NCBI GenBank assembly: GCA_037143575.1
Contig: JBAWYM010000003.1
Coordinates: forward strand, 1-52,004
Length of the DNA: 52,004 nt
Origin: Candidatus Peregrinibacteria bacterium
GTDB lineage: Bacteria > Patescibacteriota > Gracilibacteria > Peribacterales > Peribacteraceae
Reading direction: 5' to 3'
Part shown: piece after piece, positions 3,850 to 48,213 of the stretch
How positions within the stretch are numbered: the stretch's first letter is position 1
Layout: every line of letters begins with the position of its first letter
Program-made: the position numbers and the translations under genes
The notes under the pieces: generated by a model
What the model was told of the DNA's origin: nothing
The model's input: only the letters and a program-made list of their open reading frames with translations
Database searches by the model: none

Positions 3850-4818
3850 ATGAAGCTCAAAGACATTATCGGCCACGAAGACATCCGCGAGGCGCTGAGG
3901 CTGGACCTAGAGACCGGCAATGTATCGCATGCCTACCTCTTCGAGGGACCCATACACCTGGGGAAGATGACTGTTGCACATCAGTTCGCAGCGGATCTCC
4001 TCACGTGGGGATTGAGTCCGGAGGAGCGGAAGCACGTCCTCCACGACTGCGAGCGCCTCACCCATCCCGATCTTCTCGTCCTCGATCAGCTCTGGATCGA
4101 AGAGAAATCAGAGAACTGGGAGCGGATCGGCGAAACGTCCAACGCGCCGCAGCTGCATCGGAGTAAGAAGCCCACCGCCAAGACCGACACCATTTCCATC
4201 GAAGATATCCGTGCGCTGCAGGAACTCTTGTACGAAACACCTGCCGGGAAATTCCGCGTGTGCATCATCCGCTCCATCGAGCGCATGCAAGAAGCCGCCG
4301 CTACGACCCTCCTGAAAATTCTGGAAGAGCCCCCCGCTCCGGTGGTTTTCCTCTTCACCACCGCATCCCTTCAGTCCCTCCTCCCCACTATTATTTCCCG
4401 CATGCGTATGTTGCGGTTCCACCCTCTTCCGCAGTCCAAGCTCTCGCCGCTCCTCGCACTGACTCCGGAGGAAGACCGGGAATTTATTCTCCACGTGGCA
4501 CAGGGTGCACCGGGCATTGTGCAGATGCTCAAGGGTGACCCGGAGGCGCTCCGCAATCACCGGCTCCTGCACACGAAAGCGCTCTCCTTCTGGCGGACGA
4601 GCTCCATCAAAGACCGCCTGCACATCCTGCAGCCACTCACTGAACGCGGAGAGGCATCGGAGGAGCTCCTCCTGCATCTCGCACTAGCCCTGCGGGAGCA
4701 TCAGGAAATGAGTCCTGTTCATGCACCGGCATTTGCGAAGCTGGTCGCCGGATTGAGGACGAATGCGCACAGGGGATTGATTGCGCAGAGGTTTGCGTTT
4801 GAAGTACAAGCAAAATGA
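3850..4818 (+). CDS. holB: DNA polymerase III subunit delta'
   Basis: IIGHE...SHAYLFEGPIHLGK, HPDLL, ISIEDIR, AATTLLKILEEPP, LLPTIISR clamp-loader motifs. Confidence 0.9.
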   Translation: MKLKDIIGHEDIREALRLDLETGNVSHAYLFEGPIHLGKMTVAHQFAADLLTWGLSPEERKHVLHDCERLTHPDLLVLDQLWIEEKSENWERIGETSNAPQLHRSKKPTAKTDTISIEDIRALQELLYETPAGKFRVCIIRSIERMQEAAATTLLKILEEPPAPVVFLFTTASLQSLLPTIISRMRMLRFHPLPQSKLSPLLALTPEEDREFILHVAQGAPGIVQMLKGDPEALRNHRLLHTKALSFWRTSSIKDRLHILQPLTERGEASEELLLHLALALREHQEMSPVHAPAFAKLVAGLRTNAHRGLIAQRFAFEVQAK

Positions 4819-4940
4819 CCAAGTACCAAATCCCAAGTACCAAGGAAGAACCAATATTCAAATCAAAATAATCAGATTTCGGAATTGGTGATTGAGATTT
4901 GGAAATTCCCTGGTCATTGTGATTTGGGATTTGGTCCTTC
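4814..4940. repeat. Heptamer tandem arms (AATGACC/AAGTACC ... TGGTCAT/TGGGATT) forming an imperfect inverted repeat
   Basis: aatgacc aagtacc aaatacc aagtacc overlaps the holB stop; tggtcat tgtgatt tgggatt tggtcct precedes the next gene. Confidence 0.85.
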
Positions 4941-4994
4941 TTTTCCCACTACCTGCCTTGTTCAACAGGGATTCGACGGGTACCCTTCTCCTTC

Positions 4995-5759
4995 GTGATC
5001 TACGTCTACGTCCTCTTCGGCTCTCTTTTGGGCATTCTCCTGATCCTGGGGAGTCGTGTCCTCCTTCGCCATAGCGCGGTACGACACTTCGTACGGGGCA
5101 TTCGTCAGCGCACAGATCTCGCAGAGGGACGAGGTAGCGTGATCCTTGAGGAGACCATTGTGGAGAAACCCCGCAAGAGTCCGCGCATCTCGGCCATCGA
5201 ACTCCAGCAGGTGCGCTCTCTGGCCCGGGATGCCGAGAAGGCCATTGCGCAGAACAAAACGGATGAAGCGGAACGGCTCTTCATTCAGGCCCTCACCATC
5301 AATAGCAAAGCCTATGAAATCCAAGCGCAGCTCGCCAAGCTCTACCTTCATACGAACCGCGACCACAAAGCCGAGGCGATGTACCGCGAATTACTCCAGC
5401 ACAGCGACGACGTTTCCTATCACGCCAATCTAGGACTCGCCTATCACCGGCAGGGGAAATATGTGGATGCCTGCCATGCGTATCAGGAAGCGCTGAACCG
5501 CGATGCCAAGAATCCCGAGCGCAGCGCCGCCCTCGGCCGCGCCTGCATCGCCGCACAGCGCTACCCCGAGGCCGCCCTCCTCCTCGAAAAAGCCGTCGCG
5601 AGAATGTCCAAAGACACGACACTGATGCACCTCCTCGCAGAGTGTTACCTGCAGCTGGGGCACAAGGACAAAGCAGAGGAAGTGTACCGGCGCATCAATA
5701 AGCTGGAGCCGTATGATGAGGCGGTGAAGCAGAAATTGAGCGCGCTGTCGAAAGGATGA
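4995..5759 (+). CDS. Membrane-anchored tetratricopeptide repeat protein
   Basis: N-terminal hydrophobic helix followed by TPR-like units (ANLGLAYHRQGKYVDACHAYQEAL; LLAECYLQLGHKDKAEEVYRRI). Confidence 0.85.
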   Translation: MIYVYVLFGSLLGILLILGSRVLLRHSAVRHFVRGIRQRTDLAEGRGSVILEETIVEKPRKSPRISAIELQQVRSLARDAEKAIAQNKTDEAERLFIQALTINSKAYEIQAQLAKLYLHTNRDHKAEAMYRELLQHSDDVSYHANLGLAYHRQGKYVDACHAYQEALNRDAKNPERSAALGRACIAAQRYPEAALLLEKAVARMSKDTTLMHLLAECYLQLGHKDKAEEVYRRINKLEPYDEAVKQKLSALSKG

Positions 5760-5767
5760 AGCGAGAA

Positions 5768-5855
5768 AGTTATTGGTTGATTAGTTTTTAGTTATTAGTT
5801 TCTTTCTATGAGGATCATCACAGGAAGTAACTATTAACTAATAACTAGTAACCAG
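5768..5855. repeat. TAGTTAT heptamer inverted arms between convergent genes
   Basis: agttattggttgattagtttttagttattagtt ... aactattaactaataactagtaacc. Confidence 0.85.
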
Positions 5856-5866
5856 AAACTACATCA

Positions 5867-6151
5867 TCAATTCTCCAGCACTTCGACCTCCACATCCCCC
5901 TGCACGATCGCTTGGCACCCCAGCCGCTCCGTGGGATCGGTGACGCCGAGATTTTCTTCTTGTCCTGTCCGCTCCCCGAGGTGCTCGCCGCCTTTGCGAA
6001 TCTTGCACTTACACGTGGTGCAAAATCCATTGCCACCGCAGGCTCCCTCCATGGGAACACCCTTGGCCTGGGCGATGGTGAAGAGCGACTCTCCTTCGGC
6101 CGCCTCGACGACCTGAGGCTTTCCTTTGATGATGTAGGTGATGGTAGGCAT
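5867..6151 (-). CDS. 2Fe-2S ferredoxin (adrenodoxin/Fdx type)
   Basis: GACGGNGFCTTCKC ... RLGCQ cysteine pattern; 94 aa. Confidence 0.92.
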   Translation of the reverse strand: MPTITYIIKGKPQVVEAAEGESLFTIAQAKGVPMEGACGGNGFCTTCKCKIRKGGEHLGERTGQEENLGVTDPTERLGCQAIVQGDVEVEVLEN

Positions 6152-6202
6152 GGCAGCAGTATGCAGGAAGCAGTATCAAAAGAAAAAGCCTTTCGAAGAA
6201 AC

Positions 6203-6234
6203 CCTTAATACTTAATACTTGATACATAATACTT
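6203..6234 (+). repeat. TAATACT heptamer tandem array directly before the sufC ATG
   Basis: cttaatacttaatacttgatacataatactt-ATG. Confidence 0.8.
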
Positions 6235-7020
6235 ATGCGTCCTCCTCTCCTATCACTGAGCAGCTTCTCCGTCTCTGCCTCATCAAAGGAGATCATTCAT
6301 GCTCTCGATCTCACGATCAAGGAAGGCGAGGTCCACGCAATCATGGGGCCCAATGGTTCGGGAAAGTCCACGCTCGTCACAGCACTCATGGGCCATCCGT
6401 CCCTGACGATCACCGCAACGAAGGCGACGTTTCGCGGAAAGAATCTCCTCACGCTCGCAGCGCACGAACGGGCGGAGGCAGGGCTCTTCCTCGCCTTCCA
6501 GCACCCGCGGGAAATCGGCGGGGTGAGCCTGCGAAGCTTCCTCTACGCTGCGTTCAGCGCCCAGATGAAAGCACGAAGTCCCAAGAAGCAACTCTTCTCC
6601 CCCATCGTCTTCGCGGAATTGCTGGAAAAGAAAATGAAGCTCCTGCATATGGACCCGGCATTGGCTGAGCGCGCGGTGAATGTGGGATTTTCGGGTGGGG
6701 AAAAAAAGAAAGCCGAGGCACTGCAGCTCCTCATTCTGGAGCCGCGCCTCTCCCTTTTGGATGAAACGGATTCCGGTCTCGATCTGGATGCTCTCAGGAT
6801 CGTTGCGGAAAATTTGAAGATCCTCCGGACATCCCGCGCAAAAAATCAGCCGCCCTTCTCCGCCATCATCGTCACCCACCATGCGCACATTCTCGATTTC
6901 CTGAAACCGGACAGAGTGCACGTGATGGTGAAAGGGAGGATTGTGAAAAGTGGCGGGAGGGAGTTGGTGAAAAAACTGGAGAAGGAGGGGTACGCAAAGT
7001 TCAAAATGGAGAATGTATAA
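6235..7020 (+). CDS. sufC: Fe-S cluster assembly ATPase SufC
   Basis: GEVHAIMGPNGSGKST, GLFLAFQHP, VNVGFSGGEKKKAE, LDETDSGLDLDAL, KPDRVHVM. Confidence 0.96.
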   Translation: MRPPLLSLSSFSVSASSKEIIHALDLTIKEGEVHAIMGPNGSGKSTLVTALMGHPSLTITATKATFRGKNLLTLAAHERAEAGLFLAFQHPREIGGVSLRSFLYAAFSAQMKARSPKKQLFSPIVFAELLEKKMKLLHMDPALAERAVNVGFSGGEKKKAEALQLLILEPRLSLLDETDSGLDLDALRIVAENLKILRTSRAKNQPPFSAIIVTHHAHILDFLKPDRVHVMVKGRIVKSGGRELVKKLEKEGYAKFKMENV

Positions 7021-7090
7021 TGGAGAATGTAGAATTCTCTTTCAAATACTACATTCATTCTACATTTTACATTCTCCATTCTACATTTCC
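7003..7090. repeat. AATGGAG/AATGTAG heptamer hairpin element overlapping the sufC stop
   Basis: aatggag aatgtat aatggag aatgtag ... cattcta catttta cattctc cattcta; shares two 19-nt exact matches with the 16S insertion. Confidence 0.9.
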
Positions 7091-7132
7091 CCGACTATCG
7101 TGATACAGTTGTATCCCTTCCCCACCCCCTTT

Positions 7133-7885
7133 ATGGAAAACGATTGCTGCAAGCCCCACCACGCTCACGCCTGGATCCTCCTCGTCACGGTCATCCTCGC
7201 TGCTGGCGCGTATCTCGTCGGTAAAGAAATCGAAGTGCGCGGCTATACACCGGTCACGGTGAATGTCGATGCCGAAGGAAAAGTCACCGCTGTCCCGGAT
7301 ATCGCCGAGCTGCAATTCGGCGTACAGACTGCCCGCCAGAAATCCGCGCAGGCTGCCATGACCGAGCTCAAGACGAAGATGAATGCCGTCGTGGATGCAG
7401 TGAAGGCACAGGGCATCGAAGCTAAAGACATCACCACACAATCTCTCAGTCTCCTTCCCGTCTTCGACTACACGGACGGCAAACAGGTCCCGCAGGGCTT
7501 CGAAGCGAGCCAGTCACTCGTGGTGAAAGTCCGCAAGCTCGACTCCATCGGTGATATCTTGAATATCGCAGTCGCCAAAGGCAGCAATCAAATCGGGAGT
7601 GTCTCCTTCACCATCGATAACCCCACGCTATTGCGCAGCCAGGCCCGGACCCTCGCCATCACCCAGGCCAAAATCAAGGCTCAAGCATTGGCGTCGGAGC
7701 TTGGTATGTCGCTGGGCAAGATCAAAGGCTTCAGCGAAGGATCCGCCGGGTATCCTCCGGTACCGATGTACCGCAATACGATGATGAAATCGGACATGGC
7801 TGGCGCAGTCGCCGAGAGTGTGCCGGTCCCCACGGGCGAGCAGGAGATCGCGGTGAATGTGACGGTGACGTATGAGTTGCGGTAG
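7133..7885 (+). CDS. SIMPL domain (DUF541) protein
   Basis: TM helix, then VDAEGKVTAVPDIAELQFGV ... AQALASELGMSLGKI ... VPTGEQEIAVNVTVTYEL. Start placed at MENDCC. Confidence 0.92.
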   Translation: MENDCCKPHHAHAWILLVTVILAAGAYLVGKEIEVRGYTPVTVNVDAEGKVTAVPDIAELQFGVQTARQKSAQAAMTELKTKMNAVVDAVKAQGIEAKDITTQSLSLLPVFDYTDGKQVPQGFEASQSLVVKVRKLDSIGDILNIAVAKGSNQIGSVSFTIDNPTLLRSQARTLAITQAKIKAQALASELGMSLGKIKGFSEGSAGYPPVPMYRNTMMKSDMAGAVAESVPVPTGEQEIAVNVTVTYELR

Positions 7886-7980
7886 GTTTGAAAGGTTTTG
7901 AAGAGGTTAGAAACGCCTGAAAGGTTTGATAAGAACTACCTTTCTGGCTTTTCTAACTTTCTCCAAACCTTTCAAACTTC
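7884..7980. repeat. Two inverted copies of a ~45-nt 9-mer-based element (AGGTTTGAA...)
   Basis: + copy 7884-7931 follows the SIMPL stop; - copy ~7939-7979 overlaps the microprotein stop. Confidence 0.85.
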
Positions 7981-8118
7981 CTCGTCGTCGTCCTCCTCTC
8001 CCAACAAATCGCACGCACAATGCGTCTCCTCACACCCGCACCCGCCGCACTCCGGGCAGATATCTTCGCGACACAGATCACAGAGTACCGGGGGCTTCTT
8101 CGGGGAAAGAGTTTTCAT
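7972..8118 (-). CDS. 48-aa Cys-rich microprotein with acidic tail
   Basis: MKTLSPKKPPVLCDLCREDICPECGGCGCEETHCACDLLGEEDDDEEV: 8 Cys in CxxC/CxC pairs; pyrimidine-rich leader like neighbouring genes. Confidence 0.6.
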   Translation of the reverse strand: MKTLSPKKPPVLCDLCREDICPECGGCGCEETHCACDLLGEEDDDEEV

Positions 8119-8266
8119 GGAAGAAGGGTGAATGGGAGGAGTATTTTCTCTCTGAATAAGGATAGGAATCAAGAGGGCAACGGGAAATGGCTTCGAATAG
8201 CTCAATACCTCTAAATCTCTCAGGCCTCATTCACTTCATCCAAACTTGAAAGCATATCCTCCTCGC

Positions 8267-8755
8267 TCATAGACCAAATGGTTTCAGTTTTTCGTCCATT
8301 CTCCCCAATTTGTTAAATAGCCAAACAATTGTCACCTCAGGATCATTCCAACTTCGCGAAATTGCACCTCTGAATGTGCTATTTTTCCCTTCATAAATTT
8401 TCGCATTGTCTATTTCAAAATGAATACCAGGGACATTTTTTAAAGTAACGGAAATTGAACCATCCTTTCTTTCTTCAAAGAGAACGGATTCGGCATTCTT
8501 CCCAATGTACTTCTGCAACAATTGATCCAATCCCTGCCTGCTGAAGTTCTTCAGCAAGTTCCTTTCAAGCTTGTCCCGACTCAGATACATATTGACCATT
8601 TTTTTGGGATCTTTCAGGTTTACCAGCATTTCACGAGCCTCCTTTTCACTTTGTGAAATCATTACCAAGCGGAATGCAAAATCCTTTGCAACTTCTTTGT
8701 TCTTTTCGGCAATTCTTTCTTTCGATTCAGAGATGATGGGTCCGGTTTCTGACAT
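8267..8755 (-). CDS. AT-rich hypothetical protein
   Basis: 162-aa Lys/Glu-rich ORF from MSETGP, with TGTTATAAT upstream in an AT-rich stretch; no recognised family. Confidence 0.6.
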   Translation of the reverse strand: MSETGPIISESKERIAEKNKEVAKDFAFRLVMISQSEKEAREMLVNLKDPKKMVNMYLSRDKLERNLLKNFSRQGLDQLLQKYIGKNAESVLFEERKDGSISVTLKNVPGIHFEIDNAKIYEGKNSTFRGAISRSWNDPEVTIVWLFNKLGRMDEKLKPFGL

Positions 8756-8825
8756 TTGATGTGTTTGTGATAATAATATTATAACATTATTAAATATATG
8801 TATCAATCTGCTTGCTTTGAGTGCT

Positions 8826-8874
8826 ACCAAGCCTTTCAGGCCTTTCTAACCTCTTCCAAACCTTTTCAACCTCC
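8826..8874 (-). repeat. Third copy of the AGGTTTGAA-based element
   Basis: Reverse complement aggttgaaaaggtttggaagaggttagaaaggcctgaaagg aligns with 7884-7924; follows the permease stop. Confidence 0.85.
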
Positions 8875-8879
8875 GTCAC

Positions 8880-10097
8880 TCACTCAAACCTCAGCGCCTC
8901 AATCGGATGCAACTTCGCGGCCTTCTGCGCAGGATAGAGGCCAAAAACCACTCCTGTCCCCACGGCCATACTCAGCGCCAAGAAGACAGAAAGCGGAGTC
9001 AGGGAGAACGGGAACGTCCCGAGGAAGCGTGCGGCGATGCGGGCGAGGATGAAGCCCATGGTTGTCCCACCGATGAGACCGATGATGCCGCCGATAAGCG
9101 TGAGCGTGACGGCCTCGAAGAGGAACTGGAAGAGGATATCGCGGTTGCGCGCACCCACGGCTTTGCGCAGTCCGATTTCCTTGGTCCGTTCGGAGACCGA
9201 CACCAGCATGATATTCATGATGCCGATCCCGCCGACCACGAGGGAGATGCCGGCGATAAGGCTCAAGAAAATGGAAATCGAGAGCGTCACCGTCGAGATG
9301 ATATCCATCGCCTGCGAGAACGACCGCGCGATGAAGTCATCCTTGGCAGGATCATCGGTGGGATTGGTGATCTTATGCCGCTGACGAAGGAGCGACTTGA
9401 TGTCGATTTCCGTGAAGGTGATATCACCGACGGACTGCAGCGAAACGTAGTCGACGAACTGGTACTTGCCGGTCATCACCTTGGCCACGGTGATAGGGAT
9501 ATAGACCTGCGCATCCAGATTGGCGGTGAGCGCGGAGCCGAAGGACAGGAGAACGCCCACGACCGTGAACTTCTGATCCCCAATGGAGATGCGCTGCCCC
9601 ACGGGATTCTGATTGGAGAAGAGATCGGTGGCCGTCTGGCTGCCGAGGACGGCGACATTGCTCGCTCCCTTCACGTCCCCGTCGGTGAGGATGCGGCCGT
9701 GGTCGAGCTTGAGAGAAAAGTTGTTGAAGATCTCCTTGGTCGATCCGAAGATGGTCGGCTTCTTCTCCTCTTTGCCGTACTTCACCGGCTGCCCCACGAA
9801 GACGACTGGCGCGGCACTGGTGACTGTCGAGAGCTTGCTCAGCGCATCGAAGTCCGCATCGGAAATGCTCTCGGTGGCCTTGCCAAATTCCTGCAGTCCC
9901 TTGGCATGGATCTCGAACGTCGCGGCGCTGAAGGTCTCCACCTGACTCAGGATGTACCCGCGGAAACTCGCGCCGATGCTCACCATCAGCACCACCGACC
10001 CCACACCAATGATGATGCCAAGCGTCGTCAACAGTGACCGCGACACATTGCGCGTCATGCCTTGGGTGGCCGTCTGGAGGAGATCGTGGAGCAACAT
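8880..10097 (-). CDS. MacB/FtsX-family ABC transporter permease
   Basis: RSLLTTLGIIIGVGSVV, GGIGIMNIMLVSVSERTKEIGLRKAVGA, PAQKAAKLHPIEALRFE. Confidence 0.95.
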   Translation of the reverse strand: MLLHDLLQTATQGMTRNVSRSLLTTLGIIIGVGSVVLMVSIGASFRGYILSQVETFSAATFEIHAKGLQEFGKATESISDADFDALSKLSTVTSAAPVVFVGQPVKYGKEEKKPTIFGSTKEIFNNFSLKLDHGRILTDGDVKGASNVAVLGSQTATDLFSNQNPVGQRISIGDQKFTVVGVLLSFGSALTANLDAQVYIPITVAKVMTGKYQFVDYVSLQSVGDITFTEIDIKSLLRQRHKITNPTDDPAKDDFIARSFSQAMDIISTVTLSISIFLSLIAGISLVVGGIGIMNIMLVSVSERTKEIGLRKAVGARNRDILFQFLFEAVTLTLIGGIIGLIGGTTMGFILARIAARFLGTFPFSLTPLSVFLALSMAVGTGVVFGLYPAQKAAKLHPIEALRFE

Positions 10098-10146
10098 TCT
10101 ATTCTTGGGAGCGGGATTCCTTCCCGCGGGCATCGACTATAAACAA

Positions 10147-11382: not shown

Positions 11383-11387
11383 CTTGA

Positions 11388-11477
11388 GGGATCGGATGGA
11401 TGGAATGGACGGACAGGTTGCTAGTTATTAGTTACTAGTTTTTGGTTTTCTTCGGCTTCCTCGGTTTCATTCCGTTA
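11388..11477. repeat. Stacked short tandem arrays (GGATGGAAT-like, TAGTTAT, TTCTTCGGC-like)
   Basis: ggatcggatggatggaatggacggacagg / ctagttattagttactagtttttggtt / ttcttcggcttcctcggtttcattccg. Confidence 0.7.
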
Positions 11478-11529
11478 TTTCTTTATTCTCTTATGCCAAT
11501 CCACAGGAAGCATCCCGCGCTGGTTTCTG

Positions 11530-12333: not shown

Positions 12334-12379
12334 AAAGGGTGAAGATGAAGGACAAACGACTGAGAAAGTGTACCAAATT

Positions 12380-12426
12380 TTGGCTTGGTCATTCCTTGGT
12401 TATTGGGATTTGGTCCTTGGTCATTC
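12380..12426 (-). repeat. AATGACC-family heptamer arm after the membrane fusion protein stop
   Basis: Minus strand gaatgaccaaggaccaaatcccaataaccaaggaatgaccaagccaa; same family as 4814-4940. Confidence 0.8.
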
Positions 12427-12434
12427 CCCCCAGA

Positions 12435-14222: not shown

Positions 14223-14366
14223 AGAGAGATATTATACCACGTCATACTTTCTGTGTCTTGCATTTTTTGGAGATTTTTCCTGTTTGAGCCTTAATATGCA
14301 AAGTTTATGATATAGAGAAAATATGAGGGATAATAAACGGGGGATAACGGAGTATCGAAATAGTCG

Positions 14367-14400
14367 AACCTTTACAACCCTTAGAACCCTTACAACTTTC
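14367..14400 (+). repeat. AACCCTTAC 9-mer array before sufB
   Basis: aacctttac aacccttag aacccttac aactttc. Confidence 0.75.
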
Positions 14401-14423
14401 CTTTTTCACCTCGTCATACCCCA

Positions 14424-15812: not shown

Positions 15813-15834
15813 AAGCCAAAATAATCACCACCAG

Positions 15835-16103: not shown

Positions 16104-16128
16104 AGAAATATTTTATGGACATTCACCC

Positions 16129-16998
16129 ATGAAGTCGCAGAAACGAATCCCCGGCCCCACCCCCTTCTCCGGCCCCTGGGAGAACGCACCGGCATGGGTG
16201 AAAACTTCGAAAACAATTATGCAATGGCATGCAAAGGGAACGACATTCGGAGATCACCTCATCGTGATACCGGCAAGCCATTCCCGTAGGACAGGAACGT
16301 TCCTGTTCTACGGGAATGATGCCTGGACCCGCCTCCTCCTCTACGCCGGAAAGAACGCTGAAGTATCCATCGCCGTCGAACTCAACGACGATGCGAACGA
16401 AAATGCGTTCACTTTCGACTGCATCCTCGAACGTGCCGCGCACCTCACGGTAACCTTCATGAAGGGCAAATCCGGAAACCCAACCATTCGCCAATCCGCC
16501 ACAGTCGGGAAGGACGCAACGCTCAACCTCACGAACATCACCCAGGGCTCCTGCATACATACCCTGCAAGCAGACGTTACGGGAGAGCACGGGGAACTGA
16601 ATATCGACTGGACCGTCCACACCGGGAAAACCATGCACTGTAACCTCTCAGCCTGCACCGAATTCCACAAAAAATACGGAGGAGGAAAGACCATCATCCG
16701 CGGAGTCTGCGAGGGATCGTCGGTGCTGAAATCGCGCGGCACCATCGTGATCGGCAAGAAGGCGACGGGCTCGGAAGCGCATCTGGATCAGAAGATCCTC
16801 CTCCTGGACTCCACCGCCAAAGCCGACGCGATTCCGGAAATGAAGATCGAAACGAACGATGTGAAAGCCAGCCACGCCTCCACCGTCTCGCGCATTGCAC
16901 CGGAGGATCTCTTCTACTTCAGCTCGCGAGGCATCAGCGGGAAGCAGGCGAGGAAGATGTATGTCGAGGGGTTTTTGGCACAGAGAACCACCCATTGA
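16129..16998 (+). CDS. sufD: SufD-family Fe-S assembly protein
   Basis: C-terminal ILLLDSTAKADAIPEMKIETNDVKASHASTVSRIAPEDLFYFSSRGIS...MYVEGFL. Start uncertain. Confidence 0.88.
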   Translation: MKSQKRIPGPTPFSGPWENAPAWVKTSKTIMQWHAKGTTFGDHLIVIPASHSRRTGTFLFYGNDAWTRLLLYAGKNAEVSIAVELNDDANENAFTFDCILERAAHLTVTFMKGKSGNPTIRQSATVGKDATLNLTNITQGSCIHTLQADVTGEHGELNIDWTVHTGKTMHCNLSACTEFHKKYGGGKTIIRGVCEGSSVLKSRGTIVIGKKATGSEAHLDQKILLLDSTAKADAIPEMKIETNDVKASHASTVSRIAPEDLFYFSSRGISGKQARKMYVEGFLAQRTTH

Positions 16999-17182: not shown

Positions 17183-17209
17183 ATTCACAACATCGTAGAG
17201 TAGAGAAGT
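17183..17209 (-). other. 16S precursor trailer strand of the processing stem
   Basis: 27 nt complementary to 19110-19136, with one G-U pair in the RNA. Confidence 0.85.
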
Positions 17210-17359
17210 CTTCCGGGCCTCTCACCATATCCGCAAGCGGATATCGTGAGAGGGTGCTCCCCAGGCAATCGGAGTACATGACGACCATTGAGCACAGGCC
17301 GTAGCATGTGTTTTCCGTGCGATCGCAAGCGATCGACGGAACCAGAGATATTCCCTGGT

Positions 17360-18991
<1,632 letters not shown>

Positions 18992-35923: not shown

Positions 35924-36766
35924 ATGTTCACTATTGCAACTCTCCCCAAGCCCTTCATCGGGCACATCGGCATCATTCAGCGCAATGCCATCGGTTCGTG
36001 GCTGCAGCTCCGTCCGAAGCCGCAGATTATCCTCTTTGGGAATGAGGAAGGAACCGCGGAAATCGCAGAAGAATTCCACCTCCAGCACATCCCGAATCTT
36101 GAGGAAAATGCGTTTGGTATGCCCTACCTCTCCGATGCGATCCGACAGGCGGAAGCAGCGACGGAGGACGAGTTCCTGTGTTTCACCAATTGCGACATCC
36201 TCCTCTTCCCCACCATTGCCAATGCTTTCAGCCGGGTCCGTCAGCACTTCGAACAATTTCTCCTCGTAGGAGAGTGTATGAATCTGGATGTGCGTACGAC
36301 GATCGATTTTTCTGCCCCGCAGTGGCAGAACCGCATCGAACAGGAAGCCCGGTCGCACGGGAAGCACCGCGGGGTCAACGCCGACTACTTCTTCTTCCGG
36401 CGCGGCATGTACCGCGACATCCCTCCCCTCATCCACGGAAGGGCCTTCTACGATAACTGGATCCTCTATGAAGCCCGTCGTTTGCACCTGCCGGTAGTCG
36501 ATATCACGCCCATCGCGCGGGCGATCCACCAAAATCATTTCTACGGACATGTTCCAGGTGAAACACTCCAGTCACACAAGGGAGTGGAGGCTCACGAAAA
36601 TCTCCGCATCCTCGGAGGGTACGATCACGCGTACTGGATCTCGGACGCGACGCACTGGCTGACCGCACACGGCTTGAGGCGAAACTGGCTGGGAACGCTG
36701 CTTCTGCGACAACGGTGGAAGGGACTTCGGAGATGGATGGGGAGGATGATGAAAGTTGTTAGTTGA
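35924..36766 (+). CDS. Putative glycosyltransferase-like protein
   Basis: PKPF..IQRNAIGSW, FTNCDILL, DYFFF, YDNWI, AIHQNH; lies inside the glycan cluster. Confidence 0.65.
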   Translation: MFTIATLPKPFIGHIGIIQRNAIGSWLQLRPKPQIILFGNEEGTAEIAEEFHLQHIPNLEENAFGMPYLSDAIRQAEAATEDEFLCFTNCDILLFPTIANAFSRVRQHFEQFLLVGECMNLDVRTTIDFSAPQWQNRIEQEARSHGKHRGVNADYFFFRRGMYRDIPPLIHGRAFYDNWILYEARRLHLPVVDITPIARAIHQNHFYGHVPGETLQSHKGVEAHENLRILGGYDHAYWISDATHWLTAHGLRRNWLGTLLLRQRWKGLRRWMGRMMKVVS

Positions 36767-36836
36767 TAGTTATTTAGTTATTAGTTTGGCTTCGATAAGC
36801 AAAAAACTAATAACCAAAAACTAATAACCAAAAACT
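36756..36836. repeat. TAGTTAT/AACTAAT heptamer inverted arms
   Basis: ttgttagttgatagttatttagttattagttt ... aactaataaccaaaaactaataaccaaaaact. Confidence 0.85.
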
Positions 36837-36884
36837 GCTTGTACATCTCACACTTCCTCGCCGCACCGTGTACCATACGACTGC

Positions 36885-37922
36885 ATGTCAACGAAACGCG
36901 CATTGATCACCGGCATCACCGGCCAGGACGGATCGTACCTCGCGGAATTACTCCTGCAGAAAGGATACACCGTCCACGGCATTATCCGGCGCGCTTCCAC
37001 CTTCAATACCGAGCGTATCGATCACCTGTACCGCGACCCGCATGAGGAAGGAGCCCGAATCCGGCTGCACTACGGAGATCTCAGCGACTCCAGCAACCTC
37101 GCACGGTTGATCGAGGAAATCCAGCCGCACGAGGTCTACCACCTCGGCGCGCAAAGCCACGTCCGCGTGAGCTTCGACATTCCCGAGTACACCGCGGATG
37201 TCACAGGGCTCGGGACCATCCGCCTCCTCGAGGCCATCCGCCGCTCCGGCATTCCCATCCGCTTTTACCAGGCAAGCAGCTCCGAAATGTTCGGGAAGGT
37301 GAGCGAAGTGCCGCAGCGGGAGACAACACCCTTCTATCCGCGCAGTCCCTACGGAGTCGCCAAGGTCTTCGCTTACTGGGCAACAGTGAACTACCGCGAG
37401 AGCTACAATCTCTTCGCCGTGAACGGTATCCTCTTCAACCACGAGTCACCGAGGCGCGGCGAAACCTTCGTCACCCGTAAGATCACGCGGGCCATCGCAG
37501 AGATCGCGAATGGAAAAGAGGAAGTACTGTACCTCGGGAATCTGGAGGCGAAGCGTGACTGGGGCTACGCACCGGAGTACGTAGAGGGAATGTGGCGAAT
37601 GTTGCAGCAGGACACCCCTGATGACTACGTTCTGGCAACCGGCAATACAACATCCGTACGTGAGTTCCTCGAGCTTGCTTTAAAATGCGCAAACATTCCA
37701 TTTGAAAAATCGGGATCGGGAAAAGATGAAATATACACACACACGAAAACAGGGAAAACTCTCGTCGCGATCGACCCACGCTATTACCGCCCCGCCGAAG
37801 TAGATCTCCTCATCGGCGACCCATCGAAGGCGGAGAAGAACCTTGACTGGAAAGCGATGACGACGCTCCCGGAACTGGTGAAGATCATGGTTGAAGCCGA
37901 TCGGAAAGCGCTCCATCGCTAA
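36885..37922 (+). CDS. gmd: GDP-mannose 4,6-dehydratase
   Basis: [60 protein letters not shown]. Confidence 0.98.
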
Positions 37923-37957
37923 CCTCCCTGCTCCCTATTTCCTTTTCCCTTCCCCCT

Positions 37958-39310
37958 GTGAAATCCTCCTACGTTCACCGGCAATCGAAGAGGAGATTCT
38001 TTCCGGCAGCCTCCATCCACCGGGAGCGGAAGCAGTGGGGCGAAGAGCACTGGATCGCCAACAAGGAATACTGTGGTAAGAAGCTGCTCCTGAGGAAGAA
38101 CCGCGTCTGTAGCATGCATTCTCACCGGGAGAAGGATGAAGTCTTCTACCTGCAATCCGGCAAAGTCCTGATGGAACTCGGCGGAGAGCGTTTCGTCCTG
38201 CAGCCGGGGGATTTCGTGCACGTGCCGACGAATACTCCGCACCGCTTCACGGGACTGGAGGCCAGTGAAATCTTCGAATTTTCGACGAACCACCGCGAAG
38301 ACGACAGTTACCGCAGCACCACCTCAGGGCACATTGAGCAGGAGCGCTTCGATCGTCAGTCGAAGCTCGTGGAGCGCTTCCGGAAAACGAAGGTCCTCGT
38401 CGTAGGTGATGTGATGCTCGATACCTACCTCTCCGGTTCGGTGGACCGGATCTCTCCCGAAGCCCCGATCCCCATCGTGCACTTCCAGAAGAAGACCTCC
38501 TTCCCAGGAGGCGCGGCGAATGCGGCACGAACGGTGGCCGCCCTCGGTGGACAGCCCACCCTTCTCGGAGTCCGCGGTGACGACACGCCGGGAAGAGAAC
38601 TGGAAACGCTCCTGAAGAAAGACGGGGTCCGTGTACGCCTCCTCGTCGATGCTCAGCGCGCGACCACGCAAAAACAGCGCATCGTCGCAGGGAATGCTCA
38701 CCAGATCGTCCGGCTCGATACTGAAGAGAACACCCCGCTGTCAGCACCCCAGGTCCGCTCACTTCTGCGTCATATCGAAACACTCCTGAAAACCCACGAT
38801 GCCCTCCTCCTCTCCGACTACGCCAAAGGCCTCTTTTCCCCAGCCGTACTGCGGTCCTGCATCGCCATTGCCCGACGCCAGAGGAAACCCGTTATTGTGG
38901 ACCCCAAGCCCATCGATGCCTCGTACCTCTCCTCTGTACAGGGAGTGACGCTGATCACCCCCAACCGCAAAGAAGCCCTCCTCCTCTCCGGACGGGGGAA
39001 TGGCACGCCCGAAACTATCGGAAAAATCCTGGCTACCAAGCTGAAGGCCGCTGTCCTGCTGACGCTCGGAGCGGAGGGAATGCTCCTCATTCAACCGGGC
39101 AAAGCTCTCTGCCGTCTCTCCGCCTGTGCAAGGGAAATCACCGACGTCTCGGGGGCAGGAGATACGGTCGCAGCCGTCATCACCATGGTCCTAGGACTGA
39201 AGGGAGACCTGGTAGATGCCGTGGATCTCGCCAATCGTGCGGCGGGAGTGGTGGTGGGAAAGGCGGGAACAGCGACGCTCACTCCGGCAGAACTTCTGGA
39301 AGTATTATGA
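37958..39310 (+). CDS. Fusion: cupin domain + heptose-7-phosphate kinase (HldE/RfaE domain I, PfkB)
   Basis: SMHSHREKDEVFY..PHRF cupin, then VVGDVMLD, RISPEAPIP, GGAANAA, SDYAKG, DVSGAGDTV. Confidence 0.9.
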   Translation: MKSSYVHRQSKRRFFPAASIHRERKQWGEEHWIANKEYCGKKLLLRKNRVCSMHSHREKDEVFYLQSGKVLMELGGERFVLQPGDFVHVPTNTPHRFTGLEASEIFEFSTNHREDDSYRSTTSGHIEQERFDRQSKLVERFRKTKVLVVGDVMLDTYLSGSVDRISPEAPIPIVHFQKKTSFPGGAANAARTVAALGGQPTLLGVRGDDTPGRELETLLKKDGVRVRLLVDAQRATTQKQRIVAGNAHQIVRLDTEENTPLSAPQVRSLLRHIETLLKTHDALLLSDYAKGLFSPAVLRSCIAIARRQRKPVIVDPKPIDASYLSSVQGVTLITPNRKEALLLSGRGNGTPETIGKILATKLKAAVLLTLGAEGMLLIQPGKALCRLSACAREITDVSGAGDTVAAVITMVLGLKGDLVDAVDLANRAAGVVVGKAGTATLTPAELLEVL

Positions 39311-40299: not shown

Positions 40300-40302
40300 C
40301 CC

Positions 40303-41430: not shown

Positions 41431-41578
41431 TCCCCGAATTCTCGTATCGTTTCTACGAAATCAAGAGGATCATCCCATGATTGACGGATGGGTAGTGGAT
41501 TTCCAGCATTCATACCAAATGACAAACGAAAGGATACGAATAGCGAGGGAGCGAATCGCTCTGCAGAAAGCAGGGATT

Positions 41579-42298: not shown

Positions 42299-42356
42299 AC
42301 CCCTCAGAGTAGAGAATAGAGTATGAATTGCAAAGGAAACATGTTCAGCCTCATGT

Positions 42357-43229: not shown

Positions 43230-43239
43230 AAGTACTGTG

Positions 43240-44496: not shown

Positions 44497-44687
44497 ACAC
44501 GTAAAAGTATACCCCTCGAGACGAAGCAATGACTAGACATCTCGCTCAAAACCGATCACACCTACGGCAAACTGAAAATTAAAAGATAGTATTACCGGCT
44601 AAATATTTTCTCCGTCCAAAGCGAAAACATCCGATGATCCTCCGATCTATCGGTGTTGATCCACGTACGAAGCCATATCGACAATTT

Positions 44688-46679
44688 CTACTGAGGAAAG
44701 GAAATCTCTCCGCCATTATCATAACCTACAGCACTGTTCTCATACACGATCGGATACTCCTCCCCTCCCCGATAGACCGGTCTCCAGAGCGTGGAATCGC
44801 ATTCCTGCTTGAACCATGTGGATTGCCGCTCGGTGGGAACGACGAGATAGCGGACTCCGAGAGCTTCGAGAGAATCTGAGGAGCAGTGTTCGTTGGCGGA
44901 GCGAAGAAAGGCTTCCTTCTCCGGAGCAGGATCACTGATGCTACCGAAGCCAAGCGCAAACCGACCGGTGGAAAACATCAGGGAAAGTCGATCATGCTCC
45001 ATTTTTTTGTTCTCATCCTGCCAGGTACTGACAAAAAAATAGTCCTCGAGCGTTGTATGATTGCGTATCCAGAAATACATGTTCTCCTGTGCTAGAGCCA
45101 CCTTTGGCATGGAAGGAAAGAATTCGGTGTACTCCAGACGCAAGGTTGGAAAAACAAGGCGCACAGTGGCATTGAGTGTCCCTGCAATGAGGAGCAGCGT
45201 GACGATGATGACGCCGAATTTGCGCAAGCGTTGAATCGCGAAAAATGTGTCCCAGAGAAAAAGCGCTATAAGAAGCGAACTGAGGGAGAAGAAAATGTAG
45301 AAGAAGCGCAGGAGCTGCCCCTCCATCCATGGGTAGGAAAAGACAAGGGGAATCAGGAAATGGACAATGGCGATCATGCCGAGCAAAAGCGGAAAAATTG
45401 AAATATTTTTTTTGCGCCAGAAGAAGCAGATTGCGAGGAGAAAGAGAAGAATATGCGGACCGTAATCACGGAAAAATAACAGGCTCCCGAGTGCAATGGA
45501 AGCAGTATTAGAAGTATTGATCGCACCAGTCAGATTCCAAGCGAAGGCTCCGGAACCCGTGGCTCCCTGGAGTTGGGTCAACGGTCCTCCCTGGGTAATG
45601 GCAATGAACAAGACGGGCAATCCGAAAGCGGCACAGATGAGAAGGAATCCCATTGTATCGCGTCGGCGCAGCAGAAAAACGATTGCCGTGAAGGACAGGA
45701 GGCAGGCGAGAAGAACAACCAAAGATGTTTCCATGGTGATCGCCAATGCTGCCCCGAGCACAATAGCCGATGCAATCCAGAGAAAAACCGACTTCTCCCT
45801 GGGAGAATCAAGTACGTGCTGCAGACTATAGAGGAGTCCAAAGAAGTACGCTCCCCCGACGGAAATGTTGCGCTGCCCCAATTCCATAAGCAGAGGTTGG
45901 GCATGCATGTTCCGGAGCATGGGAGTCAACCATTGAAAGGGCGAAGGGCTGATGGAATACACGATCGCAATTCCGCGGATGTAGTAATCGAAGAGATCGC
46001 GCACCAAGAAAAAACCGTTCAGCCAGAAGAGACCTGCGGCAGCGAGAGACATCACGGCAGCGAGAACAGCGGCCCCCCATGAGCGTCTGAGTCGCCATGC
46101 CAAAGCTCCGGCGAAAAAGAGAATACCTGCCGTCGCGATAGGGGGAAGAAAAGACTGAGACTGTGCCAGAGTTAAGCCGGTCATAAACGTACTGTTCGCC
46201 ACCAGCAACGCAGATCCATAGTGATAACCCGTACGCTCCCATGGAATATCAGGTTCTCGAACTGGAAAATCCCCTGCAACGATGAGCGCCGGAAGAGCAA
46301 AGTGTGGAGGAGTCCATTCGTCACTCCCCCGGTCACGTGCATAGGCGAGAGCAACCAATAAAAATACTCCAATAATGAGCAAGAGGGCCTTCCTCGGAGG
46401 TATTTCCAGTGTGGTAGATAACCGCCGAAAACTTCCCCATCCCCTCAGGAGAATAATCGCACAGAGGAGAAGTACGAGGAGATACGTAACAACAAAACTC
46501 CTGGTAATCGGCAGCACATAGCCAAGAGCATTGCTGACAACCATAACGAAAGCCGGTCCCGCCAAAAATGAAAATCCTATGATGCCGAAGAGATCGCGCA
46601 CTTTCAGTATACTGATCGCAAGCAGAAACCCGAAGAGCGCAAGTGTGCCGAAGTAAAGGATCGCGAATACCGCTGTCAT
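44688..46679 (-). CDS. Large polytopic membrane protein, possible GT-C glycosyltransferase
   Basis: Many TM segments, DEW...H and YHYG motifs in the first loop, soluble C-terminal domain. Confidence 0.65.
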   Translation of the reverse strand: MTAVFAILYFGTLALFGFLLAISILKVRDLFGIIGFSFLAGPAFVMVVSNALGYVLPITRSFVVTYLLVLLLCAIILLRGWGSFRRLSTTLEIPPRKALLLIIGVFLLVALAYARDRGSDEWTPPHFALPALIVAGDFPVREPDIPWERTGYHYGSALLVANSTFMTGLTLAQSQSFLPPIATAGILFFAGALAWRLRRSWGAAVLAAVMSLAAAGLFWLNGFFLVRDLFDYYIRGIAIVYSISPSPFQWLTPMLRNMHAQPLLMELGQRNISVGGAYFFGLLYSLQHVLDSPREKSVFLWIASAIVLGAALAITMETSLVVLLACLLSFTAIVFLLRRRDTMGFLLICAAFGLPVLFIAITQGGPLTQLQGATGSGAFAWNLTGAINTSNTASIALGSLLFFRDYGPHILLFLLAICFFWRKKNISIFPLLLGMIAIVHFLIPLVFSYPWMEGQLLRFFYIFFSLSSLLIALFLWDTFFAIQRLRKFGVIIVTLLLIAGTLNATVRLVFPTLRLEYTEFFPSMPKVALAQENMYFWIRNHTTLEDYFFVSTWQDENKKMEHDRLSLMFSTGRFALGFGSISDPAPEKEAFLRSANEHCSSDSLEALGVRYLVVPTERQSTWFKQECDSTLWRPVYRGGEEYPIVYENSAVGYDNGGEISFPQ

Positions 46680-46795
46680 AAGACCACAGGAGAATATCAC
46701 CTTACCGACAAGGGAGAAATGTTTCTATCGTGAGAGAAGCGTGAAGAAAAAAGGAAGACCAATGATCCTGACGGGAAGATCCGTTCTGCCATTTT

Positions 46796-48064
46796 TCACA
46801 GAGCGCTATACCCAAGCCCCTTCTCTCTGATCTCCCGCCCCGGCAGAATCGATTTCAAATCGAACACCATGCCTCCCGGCACCAGCGCCTTGGCAAATGT
46901 CTCAACGGTATTCGAAAGATATTCCCGATGCGGCACGAGGAGTACGATGGCATCGTACGGACCAGAATTCAGAGACCCGACCTTCATTGATTTTTTCTCG
47001 ATGCGATCCACAGAGACGAAAGGATCATGGACCTCAACCGCACATCCAAGCCGAGAAAGATGAGACACCACATCGTCGCTCTTACTATTGCGGGTATCCG
47101 GAATATTCTCCTTGAACGTGAGACCGAGGACGAGAACCCGCGGAGATTTCTTTCCACGAAGAGCACCGACAACCCTGTCGGCGACATGCGCACTCATCGA
47201 GTCGTTGACGGATCGCCCTGCGGTGATCACATGCGTCTCCATCCCCAGCTGCTTCGCCTTCTCCACGAGATAGTACGGATCCACACCGATGCAGTGGCCG
47301 CCGACAAGGCCAGGGACGAATGGGAGGAAATTCCACTTGGTCCTGGCCGCCTCCAGCACATCCTTCGTCTCGATCCCAATACGATGGGAGAGGAGCGCGA
47401 TTTCGTTCACAAAGGCGATATTGAGATCCCGCTGCGCATTCTCGATCGCCTTGGCCATCTCCGCTACTTTGATCGACGGGGCACGGTGAATGCCTGCTGT
47501 GATCACCGAACCATAGAGCTCGGCAACGATCTCCAGTGTTTGAGCGTCTTGCCCCGAAACGATCTTCTTGATCTTCGTGATCGTATGTTCGCGATCCCCC
47601 GGATTCACCCGCTCAGGAGAATAGCCCAGCGTGAAATCCACTCCGCTCTTCAGCCCGGATTCCTTTTCTAAAATCGGCCCGCAAATTTCCTCCGTCGTCC
47701 CCGGCCACACCGTCGATTCGTAAATGACAATGGCTCCCTTCTTCAGATACTTCCCAACAGTCCGGCTTGCGCTCTCCACGGGACCGAGATCCGGCTTGTT
47801 CGCATCATCCACCGGAGTCGGGATTGCAAGAATGATAATATCTGCATCGGCAATAACGGCTGGATCGTCGCTGAGACGGAGGGTGACCGCTCCCAATTGC
47901 TCCGGCGTCAATTCTTGCGTCCAGTCCTCGCCATTCTGCAAAGTAGCAATGCGCTCGGCGGAAATGTCATAGCCAATGACGGTGTATCCCTGCTGCGCAA
48001 AGGCATGGGCGAGCGGAAGCCCGACATAGCCGAGTCCAACGATGCAGAGGGTGGGGCGGTTCAT
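46796..48064 (-). CDS. Nucleotide-sugar dehydrogenase (WbpO/TviB-like)
   Basis: GLGYVGLPLA, YESTVWPG, SPERVNPGD, ENAQRDLNIAF, GLVGGHCIGVDPYYL, GLTFKEN. Confidence 0.95.
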   Translation of the reverse strand: MNRPTLCIVGLGYVGLPLAHAFAQQGYTVIGYDISAERIATLQNGEDWTQELTPEQLGAVTLRLSDDPAVIADADIIILAIPTPVDDANKPDLGPVESASRTVGKYLKKGAIVIYESTVWPGTTEEICGPILEKESGLKSGVDFTLGYSPERVNPGDREHTITKIKKIVSGQDAQTLEIVAELYGSVITAGIHRAPSIKVAEMAKAIENAQRDLNIAFVNEIALLSHRIGIETKDVLEAARTKWNFLPFVPGLVGGHCIGVDPYYLVEKAKQLGMETHVITAGRSVNDSMSAHVADRVVGALRGKKSPRVLVLGLTFKENIPDTRNSKSDDVVSHLSRLGCAVEVHDPFVSVDRIEKKSMKVGSLNSGPYDAIVLLVPHREYLSNTVETFAKALVPGGMVFDLKSILPGREIREKGLGYSAL

Positions 48065-48213
48065 CGGGAGAGATAGTACACAGGGGAGGAGAGAGAAGAA
48101 ACCCAGGAAGTATGAAGGGATAAGTATCCAGTAGTAAGGGATCACTGGACAAGCCCATACCCCATAATACTTACCCCTAACGCCCATCTTCGCTACTCTG
48201 CTCCCACTCCTCT

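Follow-up and report, generated by a model that had tools for sequence, protein, structure and literature searches.

Tandem-repeat stem-loops at gene boundaries of a Candidatus Peribacteria genome and their probable kinship with rRNA intervening sequences

What are the short tandem arrays of 7-9-nt units, drawn from several unrelated families, that recur at gene ends in a stretch of Candidatus Peribacteria DNA? The stretch, called the window here, comprises 52,004 nt and is contig C3 of a 1.64-Mb assembly of 85 contigs. A first-pass annotation, made from its letters, had named arrays at 14 sites, had observed that one arm follows stop codons and the complementary arm precedes start codons, and had proposed either empty cassettes of an insertion and excision system or a signal system of untranslated regions (UTRs). 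Our analysis leads to an answer to which we assign a probability of about 0.6: the arrays would be arms of inserted stem-loop elements like those called intervening sequences (IVSs) in ribosomal RNA (rRNA) genes, similar to short tandemly repeated repetitive (STRR) sequences and probably substrates of RNase III. Cyanobacterial STRR repeats are grouped here with the heptamer repeats of the Xanthomonas and Nostoc type. Each element consists of a C-poor 5' arm of tandem 7-9-nt units, an interior, and a 3' arm of complementary units, and the interior is a short non-conserved loop, a gene of about 360 nt for a four-helix-bundle protein (PF05635/TIGR02436) or, in one case in the window, an orphan segment of low GC content.

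Complementary arms with and without a gene

Repeat arrays were located with Tandem Repeats Finder (TRF) or by direct reading, and counts were compared with those in sequence shuffled within 100-nt blocks; genes were called with our own codon model (1287 genes, about 81% of the genome coding, starts unrefined). Genome-wide, all three unit lengths suggested by the window stand far above this null: 365 TRF rows against 28 at period 7, 149 against 33 at period 8, and 212 against 39 at period 9. Of the period-7 rows, 205 of 365 lie for the most part between genes, which is the spacer enrichment that characterizes polarised heptamer repeats. Merging yields 729 arrays of period 7-9. For 195 of these, a reverse-complement partner scoring at least 14 lies no more than 1.5 kb away, compared with 2 in a reversed-sequence control. 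Once redundancy is removed, 128 pairs remain, and in 101 the loop measures at most 100 nt; these are the hairpins without an open reading frame (ORF-less hairpins). Arms and loops of these 101 both have a median length of 30 nt, with a median of 32 paired positions, and their units belong to about 55 families, the largest being TAGTTAT (13 hairpins), AATGTAG with its variants (11), ATTTGCG (10), and AATGACC (7). G-runs, the mark of G-quadruplex-forming units, are absent from these four families. Within families, loops and flanks show no conservation, every copy differing from the others. About 200 arrays in the genome stand alone; they share the left/right topology of the hairpins and look like decayed or half elements.

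The connection to a gene rests on eight matches to PF05635 (23S_rRNA_IVP) in this genome, all above the family cut-off. None of them lies on C3, as had been said of the window, and all eight genes, of about 360 nt, are bracketed by complementary tandem arms of 7-9-nt units. Four were scanned against NCBIfam, and each proved to be a TIGR02436 'four helix bundle protein'; two of the four additionally have a sub-threshold match to the retroelement accessory protein Avd (NF033474; 26.9 and 41.3 bits against a cut-off of 80), and one four-helix-bundle protein has a solved relative, 2rld (E 3e-33). IVSs, too, may carry an S23p/23S_rRNA_IVP ORF; here, none of the eight genes is located within an rRNA gene. 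Three of the cassettes share their arm units with the window: the AATGTAG arms on contig C68 recur at 7004-7088 and in an insert in the 16S rRNA gene, the AGGTTTGAA arms on C40 recur at 7884-7977 and 8828, and the AACCCTTAC arms on C13 recur at 14367.

This association extends beyond a single genome. PF05635 is present in 45 of 61 genomes of the Peribacteria class, a count that includes our own, and a 1.1-Mb genome reaches the maximum of 24 copies. Taking one locus per genome, we checked 29 loci from other genomes of the class, one of which was excluded as too near a contig end: 22 of the 28 assessable loci have complementary flanking arms (score at least 15; controls at most 14.5), and in 27 of the 28 the upstream arm has more G than C. 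In three Bacteroidales genomes and one Gemmatimonadaceae genome, 13 of 17 matches were examined, three broken or partial ones and a weak one being left out. Arms flank nine of these 13 loci (score at least 15) and one more scores 14.0; the G>C polarity of the arms is absent at the loci examined in these two groups. The heptamer flanks of four-helix-bundle genes, which the first-pass annotation had mentioned, are borne out in both samples. Moreover, protein similarity and 5'-arm similarity are correlated across 36 cassettes (Mantel test, Spearman r=0.315; none of 2000 permutations as high, p<=0.0005) and also when the 27 cassettes of the Peribacteria class are taken by themselves (r=0.281, p<=0.001), while a control with letter-shuffled arms, which retains composition only, gives r=0.053. 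Seven of the eight closest gene pairs checked share no flanking genes, and the remaining pair has a homologous neighbourhood with the genes on opposite sides of frr. This shows that the arms and the four-helix-bundle gene behave as one heritable unit, related genes carrying related arms in unrelated contexts.

How such sites look in relatives is best seen at the junction between frr and the next gene, which holds a four-helix-bundle cassette here and is syntenic in 19 of the relatives' 29 loci:

frr junction, 4 of 19 relatives: ORF-less tandem-arm hairpin (four different unit families)
frr junction, 3 of 19 relatives: short solo array directly after the stop codon
frr junction, 10 of 19 relatives: bare spacer
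frr junction, 2 of 19 relatives: other insert

Similarly, the junction between the TPR-protein and ferredoxin genes holds hairpins of four different units in four species, and the spacer 3' of sufC holds a hairpin in some species and is plain in others. The coding region of sufC itself contains in-frame heptamer arrays in two relatives (L007:10581-10645 and L008:775-807), which lengthen one and the same surface loop by about 11-13 residues; the purine-rich array of L007 runs straight into a second array, whose family is different and not complementary. The locations in which elements are tolerated hence comprise spacers (from or in the stop codon), variable rRNA helix tips, and, in these two relatives, the SufC surface loop. 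The closest SufC loci in public genomes belong to Candidatus Peribacteria and have 54-61% identity, and a metagenome scan with SufC, which sought strain-level polymorphism, gave a best match of 64% identity and none closer. The comparison of junctions among relatives, which the first-pass annotation had proposed as a check on its idea of empty cassettes, reveals filled, ORF-less, and bare states at orthologous sites, and it shows that elements have been gained or lost there. Together with the three unit families shared with gene-carrying cassettes, this polymorphism, which includes the 16S rRNA gene, speaks for that idea.

In one respect the window had been misread: the array at 18693 does not mark a protein-gene boundary; instead, it is part of an insertion in helix 10 of 16S rRNA.

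17359..18991, minus strand: 16S rRNA gene (1463 bits, model positions 1-1533), the sole full copy found in the assembly
18663..18813, minus strand: 150-nt insertion at the tip of 16S helix 10, standing for 3 model positions (fold z -4.48)

The apex of this insertion (18690-18772) is a tandem-arm hairpin of the AATGTAG family, and helix 9 of the 23S rRNA from the same genome has a 144-nt insert with AATGTAG arms that replaces 8 model positions. Both inserts fold as long helices and replace the apex of a variable rRNA helix, as IVSs do. The flanks of 16S helix 10 are 3-26 nt apart in 34 relatives, as taken by reading match coordinates. The sporadic presence typical of IVSs is likewise found, with few other relatives carrying helix-10 or helix-6 inserts: genome G025 has a helix-10 insert of like size with GAATTAT-type arms, and tandem-arm hairpins of other units occur in helix 10 (G058, G044) and in helix 6 (G003, G014, G051). 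According to its available text, a survey of rRNA insertions in the candidate phyla radiation (CPR) found none in Peregrinibacteria 16S rRNA and IVP ORFs in some CPR rRNA insertions (PMC11270868); the 150-nt helix-10 insert in a Peribacteria genome contradicts the former statement as given there. Such inserts affect rRNA-based detection, and they also affect gene calling because stop codons fall inside the arms.

The 23S gene is located at C7:35995-40580 (L123:1501-6086) and measures 4586 nt against a model of 2925 positions. It also holds a group I intron (L123:2624-2885) plus further insertions. The 16S gene on C3 and the 23S-5S genes on C7 are on separate contigs.

The arrays of the window

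TRF yields 31 rows in the window, and 12 of the 14 named sites proved real, either by a TRF row or by direct reading. The rows whose period is 7 or 9 are those at 4818, 5781/5828, 6204, 7005/7056, 7884, 11417, 14367, 18704/18736, and 36754/36802; the heptamer array at 12384 is covered by a period-11 row, and the array at 8828 was found by reading. The confirmed spans are 4814-4844, 5768-5852, 6204-6235, 7005-7087, 7884-7929, 8828-8872, 11417-11440, 12384-12430, 14367-14396, 18704-18768, and 36750-36836. Five of the sites represent the two arms of a single hairpin, with RNA folds of -21.8 to -47.5 kcal/mol and z values of -3.7 to -9.0 relative to 200 dinucleotide shuffles; with the 16S copy included, the window has six ORF-less hairpins. 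Neighbouring genes are, by Pfam, secA, holB, a TPR protein, ferredoxin, sufC, SIMPL, macB-like permeases, sufB/D, and gmd, in agreement with the names that had been guessed. In the following list, hairpin arms are those of an inverted-repeat scan (labels in brackets), and MFE denotes the minimum free energy in kcal/mol.

4814..4939, unstranded: ORF-less hairpin, AATGACC/ACCAAnT family; arms 4821-4874 and 4886-4939 (I1); MFE -40.8, z -3.71
5768..5856, unstranded: ORF-less hairpin, TAGTTAT family; arms 5784-5800 and 5836-5852 (I8); MFE -32.6, z -6.84
6204..6235, plus strand: solo G-free array of CTTAATA units; TRF 4.6 copies, sequence read
7004..7088, unstranded: ORF-less hairpin, AATGGAG/AATGTAG family; arms 7004-7035 and 7057-7088 (I3/I5/I6); TRF; z -6.83
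7884..7977, unstranded: ORF-less hairpin of 9-nt units (AGGTTTGAA); arms 7886-7925 and 7938-7977 (I2); MFE -47.5, z -8.99
8828..8872, unstranded: second 3'-type arm (AACCTTTCA units); pairs as 7884-7928 with 8828-8872 on C3, score 32.5, gap 899
7972..8830, minus strand: low-GC segment between the arms at 7884 and 8828; GC 0.437 in 8001-9000
11417..11440, unstranded: solo array, TAGTTAT family, upstream of the start (11382) of a minus-strand macB-like gene; TRF
12384..12430, unstranded: solo array TTGGTCA (AATGACC on the minus strand); TRF 12384-12404, sequence read
14367..14396, plus strand: solo G-free 9-nt array (AACCCTTAC); TRF, sequence read
36750..36836, unstranded: ORF-less hairpin, TAGTTAT family; arms 36773-36787 and 36804-36832 (I9/I10); TRF; z -4.22
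37924..37957, plus strand: pyrimidine-rich spacer ('TCCCTnn'), unsupported as an array; no TRF row, z -0.7
48107..48186, unstranded: claimed 8-mer arms at a divergent junction, unsupported; no TRF row, z -0.34

Several hairpins are interlocked with the ends of the preceding genes. The 5' arm of the first hairpin begins within the holB stop codon (4816-4818; TRF row 4818-4844, period 7), and its 3' arm, of TTGGTCA type, precedes the TPR gene. In the case of 7004..7088, whose unit family is also that of the C68 cassette, the 5' arm contains the sufC stop codon (7018-7020), the arm itself supplying the stop; at 36750..36836, the 5' arm likewise takes in the stop codon of the ORF ahead of it (36764-36766), the gmd start being at 36885. 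The hairpin at 5768..5856 occupies the convergent TPR/ferredoxin junction (TRF rows 5781-5801 and 5828-5852). The one at 7884..7977, which has a TRF row and is of the family found in the C40 cassette, is placed directly 3' of the stop of the SIMPL gene (7883-7885) and has 40-nt arms with 85% complementarity; for the arm 7884-7928, the distant array 8828-8872 is a better complement than the local partner. The segment between these two sites, possibly a non-IVP cargo, has two ORFs: a Cys-rich one of 48 aa (about 7972-8118) and an orphan (8267-8755), for which searches for families and for relatives found neither, its sole match being itself. Among the solo arrays, that at 6204..6235 adjoins the sufC ATG at 6235, is unstructured when folded alone, and has a degenerate partner of GCAGTAT type at about 6152-6178. 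The array at 12384..12430 is placed after the stop of an HlyD-like gene (12435) and before the start of an ABC gene (12333), and that at 14367..14396, whose family is found in the 3' arm of the C13 cassette, lies 28 nt ahead of the sufB ATG. Two of the named arrays have to be given up: the 'TCCCTnn' array at 37924 has neither a TRF row nor structure when 37918-37960 is folded, and for the 'CATAC 8-mer' at 48107-48186, 65 of 200 shuffles fold equally well (folded 48100-48190).

Other repeats in the window and the genome were recorded alongside. At the end of the gene 48694-50478, a 26-nt inverted repeat (50425-50450 and 50613-50638) with 96% complementarity and 162 nt between its arms has no tandem substructure and is an element of a different kind; within a sufD-like ORF (16129-16998), a near-perfect palindrome of 20+20 nt without a spacer occupies 16279-16318. 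On contig C25 (5200-5800), a 750-nt spacer contains several copies of a longer composite repeat (GGGGGAATGTGTATG...TTTGTTT... paired with ...AAACAAAAACACACACATCCCTCTCCC) unlike the heptamer-arm hairpins. An identical 9-mer-arm hairpin with its flanks occurs twice on C4 (6198-6280 and 43401-43483) as reverse complements, which suggests that the two are part of a larger inverted duplication within the contig. Two genes stand between two hairpins of one family: rpsL (ribosomal protein S12, by eye; C11:1417-2129), where the family is of 8 nt (TAGCTTnT) and each hairpin starts in the stop codon of the preceding gene, and nusB (C40:12241-12848; L086), between AATGTAG-family hairpins that are followed by the RNase III gene and, directly after it, by a four-helix-bundle cassette.

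Polarity, RNA function, and rival explanations

The polarity described for the window holds for the arms themselves: comparison of 5' and 3' arm in the 101 hairpins gives G>C in 89 cases, G<C in 9, and equality in 3, and the 5' arm is thus usually the C-poor one. Most exceptions come from the AATGACC family, whose seven hairpins comprise six that are C-first, one tie, and none that is G-first. Solo arrays of all junction types behave likewise (left side G>C 68 versus 30, right side G<C 65 versus 25; Fisher p=1e-8); hairpins and solo arrays together display the convergent pairs, their G-rich strand directed away from the neighbouring ORF end, that are known from polarised heptamer repeats. What did not stand is the tie to gene sense: the topology is strand-symmetric, and, in tandem junctions, solo arrays favour neither strand relative to gene sense (53 versus 67). 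That one arm appears after stops and its complement before starts in all junction types follows because any inverted repeat in a spacer reads so. Compositional skew had been named as a possible full explanation of the polarity. Array-free spacers are C-rich before start codons and neutral after stops, and array-bearing spacers are additionally G-rich after stops; because array-free spacers are neutral there, the background skew accounts for only part of the polarity. Stop codons were considered as its source and rejected, as they obey a weaker rule than G>C: stop triplets number 237 in 5' arms versus 144 in 3' arms, no frame stays open through the 5' arm in 28 of 101 hairpins (shuffled 10.3 +/- 3.0), and the count of blocked frames favours the 5' arm in 48 hairpins and the 3' arm in 17, with 36 ties.

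Do the arrays act in RNA as signals? The idea of a UTR signal found no backing in the hairpins: in tandem junctions, sense and antisense RNA are equally stable (27 versus 28, Wilcoxon p=0.22), and complementarity between arms is not specific to a hairpin, the own 3' arm scoring on average 0.517 and the 3' arms of other family members 0.570, with ranks evenly spread. Intrinsic terminators were rejected as an explanation, since TTTT follows 7 of 101 hairpins compared with a background of 5%, and divergent junctions are not depleted. The 91 assigned hairpins are distributed over tandem, divergent, and convergent junctions as 55:20:16, in proportion to the 756:222:224 of all 1202 junctions. A more specific proposal, that the arrays are multi-site platforms for an RNA- or DNA-binding regulator, for instance of the cold-shock or S1 type, controlling translation starts and transcript ends, could draw on their placement: 45 of 95 start-side ends have a 3'-type arm that stops 20-80 nt short of the start codon, and 51 of 87 stop-side ends have a 5' arm starting -10 to +20 nt from the stop. 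It resembles what has been proposed for TAACTGA repeats (PMC4679880, available text). We nevertheless hold it to be improbable: such a platform is at odds with about 55 unit families among 101 hairpins in one 1.6-Mb genome, with the lack of orientation bias of solo arrays, with arrays in rRNA and inside a coding region, and with orthologous junctions that are mostly bare in relatives. It is a doubtful but weightier possibility that the repeats arose in place, as heptamers made by polymerase slippage and turned by selection into convergent arrays or hairpins that act as RNA 3'-end or processing structures, with four-helix-bundle genes as later lodgers in the loop. This would suit the solo arrays of 2-4 units that 3 of 19 syntenic relatives have directly 3' of the stop at junctions bare in other respects, the TPR/ferredoxin junction, where four units in four species suggest positional conservation, and the C-richness of array-free spacers before start codons; heptamers are, moreover, reported as the commonest long simple repeats of bacteria, with slippage as the hypothesis (Mrazek 2007, as cited in the available texts of PMC4679880 and PMC4692102). 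It is harder to reconcile with the occurrence of the same unit families at many unrelated loci in several genera, with arms that co-vary with the enclosed gene across unrelated contexts, and with inserts of 144-150 nt in rRNA helices that measure 3-26 nt in relatives. Selection for RNA structure is also opposed by the lack of compensatory matching between arms, of a sense-strand stability bias, and of a U-tract, and by the use of junction types in proportion to their availability.

Could a transposase, then, act on the hairpins in trans? Elements resembling REPINs, built from repetitive extragenic palindromic (REP) sequences, would be moved as single-stranded DNA hairpins by REP-associated tyrosine transposases (RAYTs; IS200/IS605 type, Y1). 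The 1.6-Mb genome has seven PF01797 (Y1-transposase-like) matches, including four short ORFs (147-230 aa) that stand alone, and the elements are indeed multi-copy extragenic palindromes. RAYT genes are typically flanked by their REPs, whereas none of the seven PF01797 genes is flanked by arrays, the nearest of which lie at least about 1.1 kb away; in addition, variable-copy tandem repeats of dozens of families are unlike REP, and the co-varying four-helix-bundle cargo would be left unexplained. We therefore give this explanation little chance. Three further candidates were rejected. Repeat addition at break ends from independent templates does not fit adjacent arrays of unrelated families, which lack a convergent bias (by reading, about 4 GC, 4-5 CG, 8 GG, and 4 CC); a diversity-generating retroelement does not fit Avd matches that stay below the cut-off and a genome without a PF00078 match; and a miniature inverted-repeat transposable element (MITE) does not fit loops and flanks that differ in every copy of a family, nor flanks in which no duplication was noticed on reading, no formal search having been made.

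Two PF01797-type ORFs deserve mention for their own sake. A 1063-aa leucyl-tRNA synthetase ORF (C41:1315-4503, minus strand; L119) includes an in-frame PF01797 stretch (C41:3094-3435, 67 bits), apparently a domain inserted into an essential enzyme, and a 440-aa ORF (C42:11321-12640, minus strand; L120) combines an N-terminal Y1-transposase-like domain with a C-terminal part that is, by eye, like a nucleotide pyrophosphatase of the HAM1/RdgB type.

If the arrays are arms of IVS-type elements, as we favour, their transcripts would form stems with some 17-52 paired positions (median 32). RNase III is encoded in the genome, and by analogy with rRNA IVSs, which are excised from pre-rRNA without re-ligation, the cell's enzyme may cut these stems, thereby freeing the insert from pre-rRNA and cutting or end-capping mRNAs. 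The elements would persist mainly as selfish or neutral sequences, not as a selected UTR code. As to their spread, we would guess that the repeated units of an element's own arms are recognized by its four-helix-bundle protein, which is distantly related to Avd. Several observations weigh against this reading. No mobilizing enzyme was identified: a reverse transcriptase match to PF00078 is lacking in the genome, and the PF01797 genes stand apart from arrays, as described above. No target-site duplication or conserved terminus was noticed when flanks were read, a formal search for duplications not being part of this. The largest ORF-less families TAGTTAT, ATTTGCG, and AATGACC have no gene-carrying copy in the genome; one relative without a detected four-helix-bundle gene has a heptamer hairpin in its 16S rRNA; and at the level of whole genomes the comparison of the gene with array density pointed in no clear direction, with 22 per 368 kb versus 45 per 300 kb for period-7 rows and 16 versus 20 for strong arrays of period 7-9 (Mann-Whitney p=0.44). 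The different units at one junction could reflect fast turnover in place and not repeated insertion. Finally, four metatranscriptome runs consist of short 16S contigs of many organisms, among which this organism is not shown (best shares 0.31-0.39, no long low-difference piece), and the uncovered positions 18703-18763 are uninformative on excision.

Comparison with known systems

REP sequences, bacterial interspersed mosaic elements (BIMEs), REPINs, and MITEs are multi-copy extragenic palindromes in which ORF-less copies outnumber gene-carrying ones. The elements described here are likewise multi-copy, extragenic, and mostly ORF-less; they differ in that their arms are short tandem repeats of variable number, that loops and flanks are unconserved, and that Y1 genes are not flanked by them.

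The resemblance to rRNA IVSs is closer. IVSs are excised by RNase III, and one of them has tandem heptamers at its 5' cut site, according to the available text of PMC4990558. As in the IVSs of Leptospira, Coxiella, and Salmonella treated there, a stem-loop replaces the tip of a variable rRNA helix, at helix 9 of 23S rRNA, a classic IVS site, and at helix 10 of 16S rRNA too; some copies carry a four-helix-bundle ORF (S23p/23S_rRNA_IVP); presence among relatives is sporadic; and tandem heptamers border one described IVS on its 5' side. Unlike IVSs, most copies in this genome lie in spacers of protein genes, those in rRNA are ORF-less, both arms consist of tandem 7-9-nt units of many families, and excision by RNase III is a prediction.

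Among heptamer repeats, the GGGAATC repeats of Xanthomonas and the GGGGAYT repeats of Nostoc are polarised, being on the coding strand when they follow stops and on the non-coding strand when they precede starts (PMC4692102, available text). They share with our arrays the period of 7, an intergenic location (about 90% there), frequent convergent pairs with one array per strand, and proximity to ORF ends. They differ in having one G-rich unit per genome, studied as a G-quadruplex former, compared with about 55 families here, mostly without G-runs; in the text available to us, that paper never uses 'S23' and draws no link to the gene. The TAACTGA repeats of marine Beggiatoaceae, cyanobacteria, and Bacteroidetes (PMC4679880, available text) are also tandem spacer heptamers, often upstream of starts and patchy across phyla; in contrast to our arms they are direct repeats with a single indirect pair, read as regulator-binding sites, and neither 'Four helix' nor 'S23' occurs in that text.

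The repeat arrays as such are consequently of a known kind, polarised heptamers having been described in Xanthomonas and Nostoc. The new part is the tie to four-helix-bundle cassettes and rRNA IVSs, with filled, ORF-less, and bare alleles. It may have been mentioned elsewhere: full-text searches for a link between heptamer repeats and four-helix-bundle genes or IVSs, and for Peribacteria repeats, yielded only a Coxiella IVS study as relevant, in a corpus that mostly leaves out subscription journals and curated family texts. We tentatively suggest, as a bolder and distinctly less certain extension, that the four-helix-bundle gene with its arms is an unrecognized class of mobile cassette in CPR bacteria, Bacteroidota, Gemmatimonadota, and others, in which the protein would recognize its own arms, ORF-less derivatives and solo arms would be the heptamer or STRR repeats listed for decades without explanation, and rRNA IVSs would be copies in helix tips. 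For about 30 years, both heptamer spacer repeats and rRNA IVSs, whose ORF is conserved, have been on record without a known mechanism or function. In this genome they come together as a single system, in which like arms either enclose the ORF or do without it and are found in spacers, in the two rRNAs, and even, in frame, in the loop of a protein; orthologous sites are filled, ORF-less, or bare. The purpose of heptamer repeats thereby becomes testable by way of protein-arm binding, RNase III cutting, and the origin of new copies.

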